From contig JAXLXP010000007.1 of assembly GCA_046327955.1 (NCBI GenBank), positions 56,029 to 120,028 on the forward strand: a stretch of DNA of 64,000 nt. The letters are read 5' to 3'. Below, piece by piece: positions 15,832-22,625 of the stretch (position 1 is the stretch's first letter; the number at the start of each line of letters is the position of its first letter). The notes below the pieces were generated by a model. That model did no database searches. It was not told the origin of the DNA and was given only the letters and a program-made list of their open reading frames with translations. Made by a program: the position numbers and the translations under genes. The DNA is from Candidatus Binatia bacterium (GTDB taxonomy: Bacteria; Desulfobacterota; Binatia; DP-6).

Positions 15832-16379
15832 GCACCTCCCGGTGCGCGGCGTCTCGTGAGTGGACGCGGTCGCTACCAATTCGAACCGCCGCGGAAGTTC
15901 CGCTGTCGTTTTCACTACTTGAGACCCGATCCGCCTTCCTCTATCAGCGGATCGCGCCCGAGGCGCTCCGCCTCAAGACGCTCGGGATGTCGGCATCGTC
16001 CATCGCTCGGCTTCTTGGCGTGACAGACAAGACGGTGGCGAAGGCTACCCGTCGTTCTCGATTCGGCACATAGCGACGCATGAGAGGCCTGCCCCCCGAA
16101 TGCTTCGTCACCACGTACATCGTGCGCCGGAATGCGCCAGAATCAGTCGCCATGAACCGAAACCAGCACTCACGCAGCGAAACGCACGCTCGTCGCGTCG
16201 ACGGCCCCCAATGAGAGGCCCGGCTCGGTCAAGGCCAACGTGGCGGCCCCCACGGGCTGAGGTACCTACACCTATCCTCGGGGCTTCTGTTCGCACTCGC
16301 TGGGTCTGTGGACTCGGTGCACGCTGCGTCCAAGTCGCCCCCCCACGTCCGCCCCGCGGCCCGCGTGCCGCTCCCGACC

Positions 16380-16562
16380 CTACGTGGTGACAACGGTCAC
16401 CGCGATGCGACGAGGCTTCGCCGCCTCTGTCTTCGGTAGCGCGACCCCAAGCACCCCATTCGTGAGCCGCGCCGACGCGCCCCGCGATCGTCAGTCAGCA
16501 CGTTGTCGTGGATTCCCACCTCGACCTGCTCGGCGACGATACCGGGCATGTCGGTCGACAGC
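16380..16562 (-). pseudogene. Hsp20/alpha-crystallin gene, 3' remnant (cut by the IS21-family element; also internally deleted/frameshifted)
   Basis: The minus-strand translation adjacent to the IS reads STDMPGIVAEQVEVGIHDNVLT. After a frame change it reads NGVLGVALPKTEAAKPRRIAVTVVTT-stop. Both are hallmark Hsp20 segments, but only ~40 nt apart. Confidence 0.55.
16557..16562. repeat. Target-site duplication GACAGC (left copy) of the IS21-family element
   Basis: The identical hexamer recurs at 22706-22711, immediately outside the inverted termini TGCGTATACCGGCC / GGCCCGGTGCACGCA. Confidence 0.75.
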
Positions 16563-16640
16563 TGCGTATACCGGCCGAGTCGATCACCGATTCCGGCGCA
16601 AGCCGATCACCCGCGCAAGGCGATCACCCGGAGCGAAGCG
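16563..16640. repeat. IS21-family left-end terminal IR plus reiterated subterminal sites (GCAAGCCGATCACC-type)
   Basis: caccgattccgg, gcaagccgatcaccc and gcaaggcgatcaccc are inverted versions of the right-end repeats. Confidence 0.7.
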
Positions 16641-16655
16641 ACGTGAGGGCGGGGG

Positions 16656-16919
16656 TTATTTCGTCGACTTCTCGCCGGTAGTCAAGGTTGCCTTGGCCTT
16701 CCGCAGTGACTCCCCGTGGAGGGTGAGCCGGTGGGCGCCGTGGACGAGCCGGTCGCAGATGGCGTCGGCCACGGTCGCGTCCCCGATGACGGCGTGCCAG
16801 TCCGTCGGGTCGAGTTGGCTGGTGACGAGCGTCGCGGTGACGTTGTAGCGATCCTCCAGGATTTCGAGCAGGCCCTTGCGTTCGGCGGCGCCGAGAGGTT
16901 CGAGGCCGAAGTCGTCGAG
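16656..16919 (-). pseudogene. istB: istB (IS21 helper ATPase), 3' part, separated from its 5' part by the RIT element
   Basis: Minus-strand translation: LDDFGLEPLGAAERKGLLEILEDRYNVTATLVTSQLDPTDWHAVIGDATVADAICDRLVHGAHRLTLHGESLRKAKATLTTGEKSTK-stop. Confidence 0.85.
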
Positions 16920-16940
16920 TTATGTGGAGCTCGACATAAT

Positions 16941-16981
16941 TCGACTCATGTGGAGCACCTCGTAATGTGGCGTCGCCGCCG
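16941..16981. repeat. RIT left inverted repeat (41 bp, perfect)
   Basis: TCGACTCATGTGGAGCACCTCGTAATGTGGCGTCGCCGCCG is the exact reverse complement of 20349-20389. Confidence 0.9.
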
Positions 16982-17078
16982 AACCGCCCCGTCGCGACAG
17001 GGGGTGCGGCCGAGGGACTTCACATAACTCGTAGCCTCGGGTGGGCGCCGCTGGACGGTGCTCCCCAAGGAGGTTGCG

Positions 17079-18299
17079 ATGCTCGCAGAGATGTTCCCTC
17101 GCATTCATGGTCGCCTCGGCTCGCTACGGCTGCTTGGTCCACTGCTCGACGAGTTCATCGGGTGGCTGCACATGCGCGGCTTCCCCCGGTTGCCGATTCG
17201 GTTGCGTGTCCGTGCCGCGCCACGGTTGGCGGCACGGCTCCGACGGCAGGGCATCCGAGACCTCGCGGAGTTGTCCCGCGACCAATGGTTCGCCATGGCG
17301 CCTCGGGCCGACACCGATGTGTACCTCGCGGCGCTGGTCCGCGCGCTGGGGCGGTTTCTCACCGAGCGCGGGAGGTTGAAGCCCTCGACACGGACGGCAG
17401 CGGAGCAACTCGTCGCGGCCTACGGCGGGCACCTCGAGCGTGTCCGCGGATTGGCGAGGTCGACGGTCCTCCAGCACCAGCGCACGGCGTTGGACTTGCT
17501 GTCCTTCGTCGACTTCGCGTGCCCGGGCGACCTCCACACCTTGAGCGCGCGGCGCGTCGAGGACTTCGTCCGCCGGACTGGAAATCGCATCGGTCGGGAG
17601 AGCCTGCAGCACACGGTGGCGCACCTCCGCTCGTTCCTACGGTTCCTCGCAGCGCGGGGCGAGGTCGCGCACGGCCTCCCCGCGTCGATCGACACCCCGC
17701 GGACATATCGGGGGGAGCGTCTGCCGCGCGCCCTGCCATGGGACACCGTGACGGCCTTCCTCGCCGCGATCGATCGTGCGACCCCCATGGGGCGCCGCGA
17801 CTACGCGATCTTCCTGCTCATTGCGACCTATGGGCTGCGCACGAGCGAGGTGGCGGGGCTGCGTCTCGACGACGTCGAGTGGCGGGCGAGCCGGCTGTGC
17901 GTCCGCCGGCCGAAGACCCAGACGCCACTCGTGCTCCCGCTGACGGACGCGGTGGGCGCCGCCCTGCTGGACTACCTGCGTCACGCCCGGCCGTCGCGGC
18001 CATCGTACCGGGAGCTCTTTCTCCGGGTCCGTGCCCCCGCGGGTCCGCTCGCGCCCACCGCGGTCACCGAGGCGTTCCAAGGGTGGACCCGCCGGAGCCG
18101 GTTGCCGATTCCGTACCACGGCCCGCACTGCCTGCGGCACTCGCTGGCCGTGCACCTGCTGCGGCAAGGCACCTCCCTCAAAACGATCGGGGACTTGCTC
18201 GGGCACCGCAGCACCGAGAGCACCTGCGTCTACCTGCGCCTCGATGTCGAGGATCTCCGCGACGCCGCGCTCGACCTGCCACCGGGGGAGCAGCCATGA
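17079..18299 (+). CDS. ritA: Tyrosine recombinase, first of trio
   Basis: AAGGAGG lies 5 nt before the ATG at 17079. C-terminal catalytic pattern ...GLRTSEV...HCLRHSLAVHLLRQG...LLGHRSTESTCVYL (R..HxxR..Y). Confidence 0.85.
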   Translation: MLAEMFPRIHGRLGSLRLLGPLLDEFIGWLHMRGFPRLPIRLRVRAAPRLAARLRRQGIRDLAELSRDQWFAMAPRADTDVYLAALVRALGRFLTERGRLKPSTRTAAEQLVAAYGGHLERVRGLARSTVLQHQRTALDLLSFVDFACPGDLHTLSARRVEDFVRRTGNRIGRESLQHTVAHLRSFLRFLAARGEVAHGLPASIDTPRTYRGERLPRALPWDTVTAFLAAIDRATPMGRRDYAIFLLIATYGLRTSEVAGLRLDDVEWRASRLCVRRPKTQTPLVLPLTDAVGAALLDYLRHARPSRPSYRELFLRVRAPAGPLAPTAVTEAFQGWTRRSRLPIPYHGPHCLRHSLAVHLLRQGTSLKTIGDLLGHRSTESTCVYLRLDVEDLRDAALDLPPGEQP

Positions 18300-19279
18300 G
18301 CGCCGTACACACCTTCACGTCCTACCTCGGTCCCGACATTGCCGCCTACATCGCGCTGAAGCAGGCCCTCGGCCGCGGGTTCGCGCGCGAAACCGCCATC
18401 CTCGCCGATCTCGACGCGTTCCTGGCTGGTCAATCGTGCGACCTGGGTGCCGAGAGTTTCGCGGCGTGGTGTCTCACGATCGGGCGCCTGACGGCGACCG
18501 TCCGCCGCAACTGGATGCGGGTCGCACGCAATGTGTGCCTGTACCGCCGCCGCCAGGATCCCGGCTGCTTCGTCCCTGATCCGACCGGCTTTCCGGCACC
18601 CCATCCGCCGCGGCGACCGCATATCTTTACCAAGGACGAGGTGGCGCAGCTGCTGCGGGCTGCCGCGCGGCTGGCGCCGACGTCGACGTCGCCGCTCTAC
18701 GCCCCTGGGATGCGTCTCGCCGTGGTGCTGCTGTACACGACCGGCCTTCGTCGCGGCGAGCTGGTTCGCCTCCTCCTCTCCGATTACGATCCCGCTGCGC
18801 GCGCGCTCTTGATCCGCGCGTCGAAGTTCCACAAGTCGCGCGTCGTCGCGCTCTCGACCGACGCCACCCGTGAGCTGGAGGCGTTCCTGCGGAATCGCCA
18901 TCGTTGGCCGCATGCCCCTGGGGCGCCGCTGTTGGTGACCTGGCGACACAGTGGCGTGCGCCCGTACTCTGATGGTGGCCTCGGCCAGGCCCTGCGTCGC
19001 CTGTTCCGTGCCGCGGGAGTCCGGACCGCCGCAGACCGCCCGCCGCGGGTGCATGATCTGCGACACACGTATGCCGTCCACGCCCTCCTGCGCTGGTACC
19101 ACCAGGGCGTCGATGTCCAAGCCAAGCTACCGACCCTCGCGACGGCGATGGGCCACGTCTCGATCGCCTCGACCGCCTACTACCTCGCGCTGCTTCCCCC
19201 GGTTGCCGAAGCCGCCAATCAGCGCTTCGCACGACACTGCGCTCCGCTGCTCGCGGCGAGCCCGGGAGACGACCGATGA
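18296..19279 (+). CDS. ritB: Tyrosine recombinase, second of trio
   Basis: The ATG at 18296 overlaps the ritA stop (ATGA). ...GLRRGELVRL...HDLRHTYAVHAL...MGHVSIASTAYYL. Confidence 0.85.
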   Translation: MSAVHTFTSYLGPDIAAYIALKQALGRGFARETAILADLDAFLAGQSCDLGAESFAAWCLTIGRLTATVRRNWMRVARNVCLYRRRQDPGCFVPDPTGFPAPHPPRRPHIFTKDEVAQLLRAAARLAPTSTSPLYAPGMRLAVVLLYTTGLRRGELVRLLLSDYDPAARALLIRASKFHKSRVVALSTDATRELEAFLRNRHRWPHAPGAPLLVTWRHSGVRPYSDGGLGQALRRLFRAAGVRTAADRPPRVHDLRHTYAVHALLRWYHQGVDVQAKLPTLATAMGHVSIASTAYYLALLPPVAEAANQRFARHCAPLLAASPGDDR

Positions 19280-20292
19280 GCGCCGCGGCGCCCAATGCGC
19301 TTGCGCGGACCTTGCGGAGCTTCTTCGGAGATCATCTGCCGCGGGTCCGTGGGGTCAGCCCGCACACCATCCTCAGCTACCGGGACGCCTTCACGCTGCT
19401 CCTCCGGTTCCTCGCCGCGCACTGCGGGCGCGCCGTCGTCGACCTCGACCTCGTGGACCTCGAGCCCGACGCCGTGCTCACGTTCCTCCATCATCTCGAG
19501 GCCGAGCGCGGCAACGGCCCCTCGACGCGCAATGCGCGCCTCGCGGCCGTTCACGCGTTCGCCCGGTACGCGGCGACGAGCCAGCCTGAGCACCTCGAGC
19601 GCTGCCAGCGGTTGCTCGCCATCCCATTCAAGCGCGCCCGTCCCCGTGTGGTCGAGTACTTGGAGATGGAGGAGATGCGGGCGCTCCTCGCTGCGCCCGA
19701 CCCGCAGACCCCCGCCGGGCGCCGGGATCACGCGCTCCTGCTCGCGCTGTTCAACACGGGCGCCCGCGTGCAAGAAATCCTCGACGTCCGGCCGTGCGAC
19801 CTCCAGCTCGCCCGGCCGCTCCAAGTGCGGCTCCGCGGGAAGGGGCGTAAGGAGCGCGTCTGTCCCCTCTGGCCGCAGACCGCCGAGGTCTTCGCAGCGC
19901 TCCTCCGCGCGCAACGGCTCGCGCCCGACGCCATGCAGCCGCTCTTCCGCAGCGCGCGCGGCCAACCGCTGACCCGCTTCGGTGCGCGCTACCTCCTGCG
20001 CAAGTACGTCGCCCGTGTGCAATCGACGGTCCCGACCCTGACCACCAAGCGCGTGCACCCCCACACGCTGCGGCATACAACCGCCGTCCACCTGCTCCAG
20101 GCCGGCGTCGACCTCGTCACCATCAGCCACTGGCTGGGCCACGCCAGCGTCGAGACGACCAACCGCTACGCGGCCGTCGATCTCGAGATGAAGCGCGCGG
20201 CGATCGCGAAGGCCCATCCCGACGGCCTCGGCGACGTCAGCTCCGCCTGGCGGAGCGATGCCACGATCATGGACTGGCTGAAAGCCCTGTAA
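19276..20292 (+). CDS. ritC: Tyrosine recombinase, third of trio
   Basis: The ATG at 19276 overlaps the ritB stop (ATGA). ...GARVQEILDV...HTLRHTTAVHLLQAG...LGHASVETTNRYA. Confidence 0.85.
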   Translation: MSAAAPNALARTLRSFFGDHLPRVRGVSPHTILSYRDAFTLLLRFLAAHCGRAVVDLDLVDLEPDAVLTFLHHLEAERGNGPSTRNARLAAVHAFARYAATSQPEHLERCQRLLAIPFKRARPRVVEYLEMEEMRALLAAPDPQTPAGRRDHALLLALFNTGARVQEILDVRPCDLQLARPLQVRLRGKGRKERVCPLWPQTAEVFAALLRAQRLAPDAMQPLFRSARGQPLTRFGARYLLRKYVARVQSTVPTLTTKRVHPHTLRHTTAVHLLQAGVDLVTISHWLGHASVETTNRYAAVDLEMKRAAIAKAHPDGLGDVSSAWRSDATIMDWLKAL

Positions 20293-20348
20293 ACCGACCC
20301 GGTTATGTGGAGCTCTCGCCCCTCGAGTCCGCAGAATCGTGGCCCACC

Positions 20349-20389
20349 CGGCGGCGACGCCACATTACGAGGTGCTCCACATGAGTCGA
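20349..20389. repeat. RIT right inverted repeat (41 bp, perfect)
   Basis: CGGCGGCGACGCCACATTACGAGGTGCTCCACATGAGTCGA. Confidence 0.9.
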
Positions 20390-20885
20390 GGACGAGGAGC
20401 TGCACCTTGGCGAGGCGGCGCAGCGCGGTGAGGTAGGTGCCATCGGCGCGGGCCTGGGCCAGTTCATCATAGAGGCGCGACACGCGGCGGTAGGCGACGG
20501 TGAAGCCGTCCCGGCACGCCTTGTGGGCGAGCGCGCAGGCCACGTAGCTCTTCCCGACGCCGGTGGGGCCGGTGATGACCACGGTCTGGTGGGCGGCCAC
20601 CCAGCGGGAGGCGCTCAGCTCCTGCACGAGGGCCTTCGGGAGGCCGCGCGGGTGGCGGTAGTCGAGGTCTTCGACGCAGGCCGTGAGCTTGAGCTTCGCG
20701 GTCTTGAGGCGCGTGGTCAGCTTCCGGTTTTCGCGCGTGAGCCATTCCGCGTCGGCGAGGAGGCCCACGAGATCGAGCGGCGCGAGGAGCTCGCGGGGCG
20801 GCTGCGCTTGCCACTGGCGGAGCGCGGCGACCATGCCGTGGAGCTGGAGCGCGGTCAGTTTGTCGAGTGTGGGTTCGAGCAGCAT
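20385..20885 (-). pseudogene. istB: istB, 5' part
   Basis: AAGGAGG then ATG at 20885: MLLEPTLDKLTALQLHGMVAALRQW...VVITGPTGVGKSYVACALAHKA (Walker A)...LAKVQLLVLD, then the RIT end. Confidence 0.85.
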
Positions 20886-20982
20886 GGGGATCCTCCTTGG
20901 GCGCGGTGACGACCGCGCGGGTCGAGGGCTCGATGCCATCCCCCACCGCCGAGAGCCCGTGTCGGCGGCGGAGAGTGGCGCG

Positions 20983-22524
20983 TCAATGGTAGTACTTGGC
21001 GCCGCGGACGTTGGCGTGGAGCGGGAGCGGCGGGGGCTCGGCCTCGGTCGGCAGCGGCTCGGCGTCGCGATGATGACGGAGGATTGCGACGACGCTCTTG
21101 TACGAGCACGCGCGGAAGTGAAGCGCGCGGGCACAGGCCCGTTCGAGCCGCGCGCCCGGGTAGTGCTTGGCGAGCCGCATGATCCCGAGGCACGCCCGGT
21201 AGCCCTGCTCGGGGTGCGGCCGCTGCTCCATGATCGCGGCGAAGAGCGCGGCGGTGCCAGGGCCGACGGTGGCCCCCCACCCGATGAGCCGGGACGGCGT
21301 CCACTCCAGATGGGCCCGGTGCGCCGCCGGCATGTGCGCCGCCTCGGTGGTCGGGTGGTGGCGGATGTGGCTGCGCAGATGGCTCGCGACCCGACGGCCG
21401 TCGTGGAAGAGTTCGACGGTGGTCGCCGTCGCCCGCAGGTCGAGGACTTCGCCGCGGAGCTGGTACGGGACGCTGTAGTAGTGGTCCTCGAAGGCGACGT
21501 GGTAGTCGATACTCACCTTCGGGCGCGCCCAGACGGCGTAGACGTACGGCGTGGCCGGCAGCGGCCGCAGCGCGGCGCGTTCCACGGCCTCGAAGAGCTG
21601 GCGGCGCGACTGGCCCAGCCGGCGCAGTGGCCGGGCGTTCAGCCGCTCCTGCAGCGGGACGATGGCGTCGTGGAGGTCCGCGAGCGAGGGGAAGACGCGA
21701 TCGCGGAGGACCGCGAGGATCCACCGCTCCGCGAGGAGCACGGCCTGCTCGACCTTCGCCTTGTCGCGCGGCTTGTACGGCCGCGCCGGCAAGACCGCGG
21801 TGCCGTAGTGCTGTGCCAGCTCGGCGTAGGTCGGGTTGAGTTCCGGGTCGTAGTAGCACGGCCGCGCGACGCCGGCCTTCGTGTTGTCGGGCACCAGCGC
21901 CGCCGGCACGCCGCCAAAGTACCTGAAGGCGTTGACGTGGCAGGTGATCCACGTCGCCAAGTCCTGGTGGAGCACGGGCTCGACGTACGTGAGGTTGCTC
22001 GCGCCGAGCACCAGCACGAAGAGGACGGCGGTCGTTCGCGCGCCCGTGATCGGATCGACGAGCGTGAGCCCGTCGCCGCTGAAATCGACGAAGCCTTTCG
22101 CCCCGGCGCGGTGGGTCTGCCGCAGCGTCACGGGCAGCGTGCGCGCCCACACCGCGTAGCGGGCGCAGAACTGGCTGTACTGGTAGCCGTCGGGCTCGCG
22201 CTCCCGGTACTCCTGCCAGACGAGCAGCTTGGTCACGTGCGGGCGGTGCAGCTCTTGGTGGATCGCTGCCCAGTCGGGCTCGGGGCGGGCCCGCACCGGC
22301 TGCCCCTCGCTCGGAAAGAGCAGCCGGGTCAGCGCCGCATCGTCGTCGAGCTCCGGTGGTAACGGCCACACGAGCTTCGCGACCGCGATCCGGCCGAGAT
22401 AGCCGCTCACCGTGCTCACCGAGAGCCGACAGCTCCGGGCGATCGCCCGGGCCGGGAGCCCGACGTCCAGCCGGAGTCGGAGCACTTCGCGGAGTTTGCG
22501 CATGGGAATCCTCTCTGCCGCCAT
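20983..22524 (-). CDS. istA: IS21-family transposase IstA
   Basis: AGGAGG then ATG at 22524: MAAERIPMRKLREVLRLRLDVGLPARAIARSCRLSVSTVSGYL (HTH), followed by a DDE core. The track ORF starts 6 nt upstream at a GTG. Confidence 0.85.
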   Translation of the reverse strand: MAAERIPMRKLREVLRLRLDVGLPARAIARSCRLSVSTVSGYLGRIAVAKLVWPLPPELDDDAALTRLLFPSEGQPVRARPEPDWAAIHQELHRPHVTKLLVWQEYREREPDGYQYSQFCARYAVWARTLPVTLRQTHRAGAKGFVDFSGDGLTLVDPITGARTTAVLFVLVLGASNLTYVEPVLHQDLATWITCHVNAFRYFGGVPAALVPDNTKAGVARPCYYDPELNPTYAELAQHYGTAVLPARPYKPRDKAKVEQAVLLAERWILAVLRDRVFPSLADLHDAIVPLQERLNARPLRRLGQSRRQLFEAVERAALRPLPATPYVYAVWARPKVSIDYHVAFEDHYYSVPYQLRGEVLDLRATATTVELFHDGRRVASHLRSHIRHHPTTEAAHMPAAHRAHLEWTPSRLIGWGATVGPGTAALFAAIMEQRPHPEQGYRACLGIMRLAKHYPGARLERACARALHFRACSYKSVVAILRHHRDAEPLPTEAEPPPLPLHANVRGAKYYH

Positions 22525-22625
22525 CACCACCTCCTGGTGGCGGTAGGCGGGCGGGAATCCCCCGCGCCGTCAACGTGCCGGGTGACCGCCGCCGCGCGTC
22601 AGCCCGTCAGGCTGTTCGCACGGCC

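Follow-up and report, generated by a model that had tools for sequence, protein, structure and literature searches.

A RIT element inside an IS21 istB gene: its ends, its junctions and a candidate route of integration

RIT (recombinase-in-trio) elements have been known since 2009, and plasmids that carry them number in the hundreds. The RitC protein described here is 46-55% identical to proteins in 584 PLSDB plasmid records, and the genes stand as a trio in all four of the records examined (the CH34 archetype was left out of this comparison). Van Houdt 2012 reported varying sequence at RIT ends and repeats that 'do not fit' the usual binding sites (PMC3414803), and the table of a 2023 review gives their target specificity and movement as 'not tested' (PMC10214605). 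The locus presented here raises the question of what the ends of such an element are, and how three tyrosine recombinases bring it into one codon pair of a gene that belongs to another mobile element. The reading of RIT ends that we offer is absent from the accessible literature; Ricker et al. 2013 may already mention istB targeting.

The element and the gene it interrupts

We believe that positions 16920-20390 of the window (the whole 64-kb stretch of DNA that was analysed) are probably an intact, recently active RIT element, which moves by conservative site-specific recombination and not by DDE-type transposition. The features are as follows.

16656-16919, minus strand: 3' part of istB (LDDFGLEP to STK and the stop codon); it begins with two codons formed by the hexamer copy at 16914-16919
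16914-16919: GTCGAG, the PAL-side junction hexamer; the istB strand reads CTCGAC, which encodes Leu-Asp
16920-16939: PAL, a 20-bp near-palindrome, TTATGTGGAG followed by CTCGACATAA; two head-to-head putative recombinase half-sites, part of the element
16940-16945: hexB, TTCGAC, the centre of the intact, unused candidate core site B, built from the right arm of PAL, hexB and the outer arm of IRL
16941-16981: left arm of a terminal inverted repeat (IR) that is perfect over 41 bp, pairing with 20349-20389
16946-16958: left outer arm TCATGTGGAGCAC, inside the left IR arm
16963-16974: left inner box TAATGTGGCGTC, inside the left IR arm
17016-17029: third box of the left end, inward-facing, GACTTCACATAACT
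17079-18299, plus strand: ritA, a 406-aa tyrosine recombinase; Pfam Phage_integrase (PF00589)
18296-19279, plus strand: ritB, a 327-aa tyrosine recombinase; Pfam Phage_integrase; ATGA overlap with ritA
19276-20292, plus strand: ritC, a 338-aa tyrosine recombinase; Pfam Phage_integrase; ATGA overlap with ritB
20301-20315: third box of the right end, GGTTATGTGGAGCTC
20349-20389: right arm of the perfect 41-bp IR, holding an inner box at 20354-20366
20372-20384: right outer arm GTGCTCCACATGA, inside the right IR arm
20385-20390: junction hexamer GTCGAG on the PAL-less side; the putative site-A centre after crossover with target CTCGAC
20385-20885, minus strand: 5' part of istB (M1 to KVQLLVLD167), ending in the Walker-B aspartate codon
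20983-22530, minus strand: istA of the host IS21-family element; rve domain and Mu-transposase C-terminal domain

We start ritA at ATG 17079, with AAGGAGG upstream at 17067-17073; the open frame itself reaches back to GTG 17058. The catalytic R/HxxR/H/Y motifs are kept in RitA (GLRTSE...HCLRH...GH..Y), RitB (TGLRRGE...HDLRH...GH..Y) and RitC (TGARVQE...HTLRH...GH..Y), as judged by a motif scan and not by structure. RitA has a SAM-like domain at residues 121-201, and the roughly 120 residues N-terminal to it match no domain. In RIT elements generally RitA is the longest Rit protein, and at its N-terminus it carries an additional DNA-binding domain, a second CB (PMC8138268). The only enzymes in the element are the three tyrosine recombinases, with no DDE, HUH or serine enzyme. 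Non-coding DNA takes up only about 160 bp at its left end and 100 bp at its right end, and the element has no fourth small accessory gene of the TnpC/Srap/GinD kind.

Nothing in this element differs in kind from the RITs of Cupriavidus metallidurans CH34 and C. necator pHG1 ritABC (Van Houdt et al. 2009, 2012, PMC3414803; Ricker et al. 2013; Smyshlyaev et al. 2021, PMC8138268), and we count it as a member. It has in common with them the ritA-ritB-ritC order, the 4-bp overlaps, a length of about 3.5 kb, long imperfect terminal IRs with an 'overlapping palindromic sequence', and several identical copies per genome, often inside other mobile elements.

The perfect 41 bp of the IR continue imperfectly to about 90 bp, reaching a CACATAAC box. 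Within the 64-kb window GTTATGTG is found only at 16919(+), 17021(-) and 20302(+), where 0.23 would be expected. ATGTGGMG occurs at 16922, 16948, 16965 and 20305 on the plus strand and at 20358 and 20375 on the minus strand, and these six of its nine matches in the window lie no more than about 160 nt from the element ends. PAL, TTATGTGGAGCTCGACATAA, is self-complementary at 18 of its 20 positions. The GTCGAG copy at 20385-20390 sets the right boundary at 20390 instead of 20389. Most of this anatomy had been described correctly in the first-pass annotation: the complete trio with its ATGA overlaps (now backed by ORF coordinates, Pfam matches and catalytic motifs), the extent of the IRs, the plus-strand boxes and GTCGAG at both junctions. 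The two inverse boxes, placed at 20360 and 20373, were off by 2.

When 16920-20390 is removed in silico, the flanks give a 252-aa IstB with LLVLDD intact (Pfam IstB_IS21, E = 3.9e-65). The gene is split between the codons for LLVLD and the D that follows.

Three copies in one genome

The genome holds three copies. Copy 1, the one in the window, matches copy 2 at 100% identity over 3,448 bp; copy 3 (C32:691735-695148) has 36 small indels, real or apparent. All three split the same Walker-B codon pair, LLVLD before D or E, in three different istB genes whose proteins are only 24-38% identical. This bears out the suggestion, made from the window alone, that the core site accounts for the choice of an IS21 istB. 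Base differences between copies 2 and 3 amount to about 0.4% within the RIT but to about 17% in the flanking IS21, so they are independent insertions. Two intact istB copies (G000 C3:178791 and C35:234041) have their consensus site unoccupied.

The copies are found in two configurations. PAL stands to the left of IRL in the window copy but to the right of IRR in the other two, in the same orientation with respect to the rit genes. The 21-bp left tip had been called a near-palindrome, which it is, but it is not a fixed left end. Since PAL can stand at the right end, the joint of the two ends would carry two mirror-image core sites. The joined form, a putative double- or single-stranded circle, would be one long palindrome running IRR outer arm-hexA-PAL-hexB-IRL outer arm, that is ..GCTCCACATGA, hexA GTCGAG, TTATGTGGAG and CTCGACATAA, hexB TTCGAC, TCATGTGGAGC.. 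in order. The predicted 58-nt joint reads ...GGTGCTCCACATGA GTCGAG TTATGTGGAGCTCGACATAA TTCGAC TCATGTGGAGCACC.... Each of the mirror-image cores would have the Xer/dif geometry, two 11-bp arms around a 6-bp centre: site A is GCTCCACATGA-GTCGAG-TTATGTGGAGC and site B is CTCGACATAA-TTCGAC-TCATGTGGAGC (consensus of 46 unique ends). An earlier parsing had 9-bp arms around a 10-bp spacer. The window copy appears to have used the core so described, but by sequence analogy the dif-like 11-6-11 parsing seems to us the better reading. The core has CATNA-N6-TTATGT in common with the dif sites of PMC3025954.

Ordinary transposition would explain the window copy as a 6-bp target-site duplication beside an element with fixed asymmetric ends, PAL belonging to the left one. 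GTCGAG does stand on both sides of the window copy, and identical hexamers flank 12 of the 20 simple insertions found in a wider survey (below). However, PAL sits at opposite ends of identical element copies, and the junction hexamers of the fresh copies 2 and 3 are CTGGAC vs TTCGAC despite (near-)identical RITs. Junction hexamers often differ (8 of the 20 simple insertions), and therefore they are not the product of fill-in duplication, which would leave identical repeats of fixed length; we reject it. The enzymes of the element and its extreme targeting, to one codon pair, also speak against this account, and we consider it scarcely credible.

An assembly artefact is just as hard to credit. 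Perfect IRs could cause flanks to be joined wrongly, and PAL would then only seem to move. Three metagenome contigs (L021, L072, L074) carry the same inverted flank on both sides and can come from such mis-joins across the IRs, and the indels of copy 3 might be counted on the same side. Against this, removal of the element restores an open istB frame with matching halves in all three copies, the copies lie inside contigs of 325-954 kb, and finished plasmids from cultured bacteria obey the same junction rule. We reject the artefact on the restored istB genes and the finished plasmids.

The source metagenome, from wastewater, was consulted as Logan k=31 contigs. They contain no 16919-to-20391 joint, which would be the empty site, and no contig of the joint; the diagnostic joint takes at least 34 nt, so at this k, too short for the circle, the absence of a joint contig is uninformative. 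Depth in X1 is 54 over the RIT body vs 13-15 over the flanks, a ratio that is confounded by related metagenome elements and gives no count of copies or circles.

The junction rule among relatives

We parsed 116 ends from 86 loci and added four complete proteobacterial plasmids. One rule describes the junctions: next to PAL comes the target's 3' half, and next to the PAL-less end its 5' half, which ends in hhhhD. An Asp ends the flank after at least three hydrophobic residues in four in 44 of 46 unique PAL-less flanks. Among 43 unique PAL-side flanks Asp is the second residue in 37 and D/E the third in 36. The flank peptides (n=49) match IstB_IS21 in 27 cases, TnpB_IS66 in 6 and rve in 2. The same architecture is found in the complete plasmids, Bradyrhizobium pLCT2, Rhizobium pTiK15/93, Mycetohabitans and P. 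phymatum. A pattern search for PAL in 401 genomes of the phylum matched only two other genomes, and a scan of genome contigs with RitB yielded no more than 3 loci. In G013 no PAL was found, so the reciprocal product of the G013 rearrangement is missing.

The arms and PAL are conserved across the relatives, with about 2 bits at CACAT/ATGTG, and the spacing from inner box to outer arm is 17 nt throughout. Variants of PAL remain symmetrical. A derivation of PAL from the target was considered and rejected, as PAL is conserved across IstB, IS66 and rve targets. These conserved arms, with NTCGAC-like hexamers in two more copies and about 90 relatives, agree with the first-pass proposals that the joined ends rebuild a tyrosine-recombinase core and that the arms would be conserved among related RITs. 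The recurrence of one type of target, and hexamers that often differ, likewise favour the proposed site-specific crossover over a transposase duplication. What has to be given up is the expectation of a shared core at both junctions: the NTCGAC-like hexamers recur, but the two need not be identical.

Two further accounts accept site-specific recombination and differ from ours in the route. In the first, a single core site serves for integration, and the rit body later flips in place to give the two PAL configurations, either through site-specific exchange of the PAL-less junction with the intact core or through homologous recombination of the two IRs. The IRs match without a difference over 41 bp, the junction is inverted with respect to the intact core, the two orientations are about equal (38 R0 vs 31 R+), and the products would be indistinguishable from those of two-site integration. 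Yet an extra step is required for about half of the insertions, and in most elements hexB comes close to hexA in reverse complement (5 or 6 of the 6 positions match in 29 of 46), a mirror symmetry that two equivalent sites predict. We think such an inversion unlikely as the general explanation.

The second account is a single-stranded hairpin intermediate, as in CTX phage and integron cassettes. The palindrome of about 200 nt would fold, its stem would present one dif-like core for a single strand exchange with the target, and replication would complete the integration. The entire joint is palindromic, and PAL variants stay symmetrical through changes in both halves, though two identical protein half-sites would explain the latter equally well. 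In the informative cases (copies 2/3, L034, L050), which number only three or four, the target hexamer stays at the PAL-less junction and the element hexamer on the PAL side, a polarity to be expected if a single cleavage position defined both junctions. Nielsen et al. (PMC5737581) reported RIT DNA that was protected from exonuclease but gave no circular read pairs, and they proposed hairpins. On the other side, the element has no replication or nicking function. We give the hairpin some chance, a minor one.

A candidate mechanism and its place among known systems

We prefer integration from two equivalent sites. Site A or site B would exchange strands with a target hexamer NT(C/G)GAC, the hydrophobic-residue and Asp codon pair of hhhhD(D/E), above all in the Walker-B motif of IS21 IstB. 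Sites A and B are mirror images, which would allow entry in either orientation, and PAL would always end up beside the 3' half of the target. By this scheme the window copy would have used site A and copies 2 and 3 site B. The outcome would be a split target gene and a RIT in a 'safe' site inside another mobile element. The circular intermediate is inferred, and so are cleavage at the borders of the 6-bp centre (from the 6-bp stretch that the junctions share or swap), the assignment of Rit proteins to boxes and the number of strand pairs exchanged, one or both.

A close parallel is XerC/XerD-dif, with two inverted arms of about 11 bp around a 6-bp centre and inner bases CATNA / TTATGT (PMC3025954); the Rit proteins are themselves 'simple' Xer-like tyrosine recombinases (PMC8138268), and CTX integration at dif also tolerates heterologous centres. 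In contrast to XerCD-dif and IMEX systems, which use chromosomal dif and host XerCD, the RIT brings its own three recombinases and targets an IS coding motif (all three copies lie in istB coding sequence), and it has two mirror-image cores around a central palindrome. Tn554, SE and GInt are also site-specific tyrosine transposons with several recombinases, and their 6-bp junction hexamer does not represent a true duplication. They require a fourth small protein (TnpC/Srap/GinD), however, and Tn554 is without terminal IRs, whereas the RIT has three tyrosine recombinases only, long IRs and the PAL twin site. Tn916 and CTnDOT excise and integrate by a tyrosine recombinase through a circle (which for the RIT is only inferred), with 'coupling' sequences of 6-7 bp that may be heterologous, but they have a single integrase plus Xis, large cargo, AT-rich or loosely defined targets and no twin palindromic core.

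It is an even question, in our opinion, whether RITs as a class are homing 'hyperparasites' of other mobile elements in the full sense, in which four things hold jointly. Each RIT lineage may have a twin dif-like core around a shared palindrome. Entry may be in either orientation into DNA for an invariant catalytic motif (the IstB Walker-B Asp, IS66 TnpB WD-GQG, rve D-VFSR). One defined strand cut may set both junctions, with the 6-bp centre then rewritable by each target. Finally, the leftover intact second core may drive inversions and fusions of IS copies, giving head-to-head IS21-RIT-IS21 arrangements.

The genome is a natural experiment, with (near-)identical copies in three different istB genes and in both configurations. 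From these copies come exact attachment sites, the predicted joint and a minimal target of about 24 bp, and the predictions about orientation and hexamer inheritance make the RIT mechanism directly testable. A tyrosine-recombinase element that disables IS21 helper genes, and may join or flip IS copies, bears on genome plasticity; there may also be a bearing on programmable, motif-directed integration tools.

In the survey, 11 of the 31 loci with both ends parsed have L0R0 or L+R+ forms, for which a second event is needed. The target motif is short, and NT[CG]GACGA-N4-GG occurs 599 times in this genome, so the enrichment in IS genes may partly be purifying selection against insertions elsewhere.

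The element and its three copies

The element in the window is a member of the known recombinase-in-trio (RIT) class. Reports on this class describe RIT ends as variable and not fitting known binding-site schemes (PMC3414803), circular forms as not found (PMC5737581), and target specificity and movement as not tested (PMC10214605). We found no later literature addressing ends, circles or target specificity, Ricker et al. 2013 being outside our coverage.

Features of the window copy
17058/17079-18299: ritA, co-oriented with ritB and ritC; Pfam Phage_integrase and SAM-like N-terminal domain
18296-19279: ritB, co-oriented with ritA and ritC; Pfam Phage_integrase
19276-20292: ritC, co-oriented with ritA and ritB; Pfam Phage_integrase and SAM-like N-terminal domain
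16941-16981 and 20349-20389: perfect 41-bp inverted repeat, extending imperfectly to about 90 bp
16914-16919 and 20385-20390: GTCGAG hexamers, one at each junction
20983-22530: IstA-like gene, upstream of the rebuilt IstB gene

The first-pass annotation read the trio, its repeats and its left tip correctly. ATGA overlaps link the three open reading frames, a motif scan finds R / HxLRH / GH...Y kept in each product, and the 20-21 extra bases left of the left repeat, TTATGTGGAGCTCGACATAA(T), are self-complementary at 18 of 20 positions; we call this near-palindrome PAL. The short end motifs it listed are present and concentrated at the ends, but its positions were off by up to 2 nt: GTTATGTG occurs three times in the 64-kb window, always inside the RIT (0.23 expected), and six of nine window matches to ATGTGGMG lie no more than about 160 nt from an end. 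In-silico removal of 16920-20390 leaves a 252-aa IstB (IstB_IS21, E = 3.9e-65) with LLVLDD intact, and the GTCGAG listed earlier is present at both junctions.

The source assembly (4.27 Mb, 37 contigs, 71% G+C) holds three copies: the window copy (copy 1), copy 2 (C35:182757-186205), which is 100% identical to it over 3,448 bp, and copy 3 (C32:691735-695148). All three interrupt an IstB-like gene exactly past its LLVLD codons. The window istB shares only 24-38% protein identity with the hosts of copies 2 and 3, and 15 substitutions over 3,449 bp separate these two copies within the RIT, against about 17% divergence in the flanking IS21 DNA. The different hosts and divergent flanks make these repeated, independent insertions at one codon pair.

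Copy 3 (surveyed as L010/L103) also differs from copy 2 by 36 small indels that split ritC into several frames. These may be assembly consensus errors rather than decay, since there are only 15 substitutions and since a 3,427-nt short-read contig from X1, a sequencing run of the source metagenome, matches copy 1 without mismatch. Logan contig depth in X1 (window 16300-21000) is about 54 on the RIT body against 13-15 on the istB flanks, closer to four copy-equivalents than three; the excess may point to an additional copy, to extrachromosomal forms or to related elements in the metagenome.

Core sites and the shift of PAL

In every copy PAL faces the same way with respect to the rit genes, and between copies it changes sides, adjoining the 3' half of istB every time (IRL and IRR are the left and right terminal inverted repeats).

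Order of parts
Copy 1: istB-3'(rc) - GTCGAG - PAL - TTCGAC - IRL ... IRR - GTCGAG - istB-5'(rc)
Copies 2 and 3: istB-5' - CTGGAC - IRL ... IRR - GTCGAG - PAL - TTCGAC - istB-3'

Closing either form end to end yields one predicted joint, IRR - GTCGAG - PAL - TTCGAC - IRL, which is a near-perfect long palindrome holding two mirror-image core sites.

Core sites of the predicted joint
Site A: GCTCCACATGA GTCGAG TTATGTGGAGC
Site B (mirror of A): (G)CTCGACATAA TTCGAC TCATGTGGAGC

We are highly confident that the window RIT arrived by site-specific tyrosine-recombinase integration at the hexamer. The intermediate, judging from these sequences, was likely a joined form carrying both cores; copy 1 would have crossed over at site A, the very site that the first-pass annotation rebuilt from the joined ends, and copies 2 and 3 at site B. 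A double-stranded circle, a single-stranded hairpin, and single-site integration with inversion of the body are inseparable by sequence.

The inverted arms around a spacer proposed earlier stand, though 9-bp arms and a 10-bp spacer are probably not the best parse. We lean towards 11-bp arms around a 6-bp centre because of the 6-bp shared or swapped junction block, the conservation of CACATNA / TNATGTG, and the resemblance to dif. E. coli dif is GGTGCGCATAA TGTATA TTATGTTAAAT with a 'canonical 6 bp' centre (PMC3025954). The likeness to Xer/dif lies in this 11-6-11 parse and is consistent with the classing of RitA, RitB and RitC among simple, Xer-like tyrosine recombinases (PMC8138268); cleavage positions are predicted from this sequence analogy.

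Junction hexamers are identical in 12 of 20 simple insertions and different in 8, including the fresh insertions of copies 2 and 3 (CTGGAC vs TTCGAC). This rules out a target-site duplication and bears out the earlier preference for crossover over transposase duplication. Where the element's own hexamer is knowable (copies 2/3 and loci L034 and L050), the target hexamer sits at the PAL-less junction and the element hexamer on the PAL side. These three or four cases hint, and we hold this loosely, that one defined strand cut may set both junctions.

Junctions among relatives

Scanning metagenomes with a RitC alignment gave 80 loci (RitC identity 57-86%), to which we added two MAG contigs, the related genome G013 and the source genome's three copies. 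From this set a script that detects only ends built as in this clade parsed 116 ends. In every one the inner box ACTCCACAT(T/A)A lies exactly 17 nt ahead of the outer arm ..CTC(A/C)ACAT(G/T)A, and the 6-bp hexamer comes next. The hexamer of a PAL-less end leads directly into the reverse complement of the gene's 5' half (46 unique flanks); 44 of 46 flanks are Asp-terminal and 44 have at least three hydrophobic residues among the preceding four. PAL ends (43 unique flanks) read outward as hexamer, about 20-bp palindrome, hexamer and gene 3' half, with Asp as second residue in 37/43 and D/E as third in 36/43. Taken over 46 unique PAL ends, the consensus reads G.GCTCaACATgA / GTCGA. / TTATGTGGAGCTCCACATAA /.TCGAC, and variants such as TTATGTTGAGCTCAACATAA (five times), TAATGTGGAGCTCCACATTA, AAATGTGGAGCTCCACATTT and TAATGGTGAGCTCACCATTA retain the symmetry.

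PLSDB contains 584 plasmids with RitC homologues, and all four finished plasmids examined obey the junction rule.

RIT arrangement in finished plasmids
Bradyrhizobium pLCT2: LLILD / RIT / PAL / LDDWGPEPL
Rhizobium pTiK15/93: mirror arrangement of pLCT2
Mycetohabitans and P. phymatum plasmids: both RIT ends PAL-less

From survey ends and plasmids together, the arms are conserved and NTCGAC-like hexamers are common to all junctions, as the first-pass model expected of other copies and relatives.

A solo consensus palindrome, TTATGTGGAGCTCCACATAA, stands in genome G287 (L105:1501-1520) with no adjacent RIT, within apparent coding sequence and between inverted 7-mers AGCTGAT / ATCAGCT; it may be a footprint of alternative excision.

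Targets and rearranged forms

The target logo from surveyed flanks is ..T..T..TC NTCGAC GA....GG. In the 49 flank peptides that reach 60 residues (out of 66 flanks of at least 35), domain search found IstB_IS21 in 27, TnpB_IS66 in 6, rve in 2, and DNA ligase and SNF2 helicase once each. The motif NT[CG]GACGA-N4-GG occurs 599 times in the source genome, yet all three copies lie in istB, so a short motif is not enough to explain so narrow a choice of target. Either recognition reaches beyond it, as the 21 of 24 bases common to the three targets would suggest, or insertions elsewhere were purged. Outside the window, at C3:178791 and C35:234041, two istB genes of IS21 are intact and of a third type (PLLIIDDLGM). 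Each carries an unoccupied TCCTCATC ATCGAC GACCTCGG that fits the consensus, and they could become targets in future or serve as empty-site controls.

Protein-coding motifs are the target for some RIT lineages, not all: at L089:5050-5700 (metagenome contig Ga0209648_10015135) a RIT with hexamer GGGCTA/TAGCCC heads an array of eight tRNA genes, and the sequence past its PAL resembles the 3' part of a tRNA. A Vicinamibacterales RIT (L017), like those of the source genome, sits at an istB Walker-B site; an in-frame TGA replaces the conserved Trp of CPLWPQ in its ritC (732-1745), and it is probably a dead copy.

Both ends were parsed at 31 loci: PAL is on the left only in 11, on the right only in 9, absent in 6 and at both ends in 5. 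Some loci whose two flanks are identical and inverted may have been mis-joined in assembly; the forms in G013 and the finished Mycetohabitans plasmid are real, since each brings together, head to head, the 5' halves of two distinct istB genes. In G013 (L012, C1:18500-27500) a single RIT, 81% identical to the window RIT, lies between two unrelated IS21 elements whose complete istA genes and 5' istB halves face each other; G013 yielded neither the matching 3' istB halves nor a PAL. Recombination between two insertions, one of each configuration, would be expected to give head-to-head pairs as its reciprocal products, and copies 1 and 2, inverted and 110 kb apart on one contig, could yield such pairs in the source genome. 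Alternatively, an intact spare core could have recombined with a second target; loci L029 and L030 have the element and left flank in common and differ in the right flank. In a Vicinamibacteraceae MAG contig (L018, JBOGIN010001239), several Rit gene matches, some partial and some full, lie within 5 kb in both orientations, which suggests that RITs there are nested or have recombined with one another.
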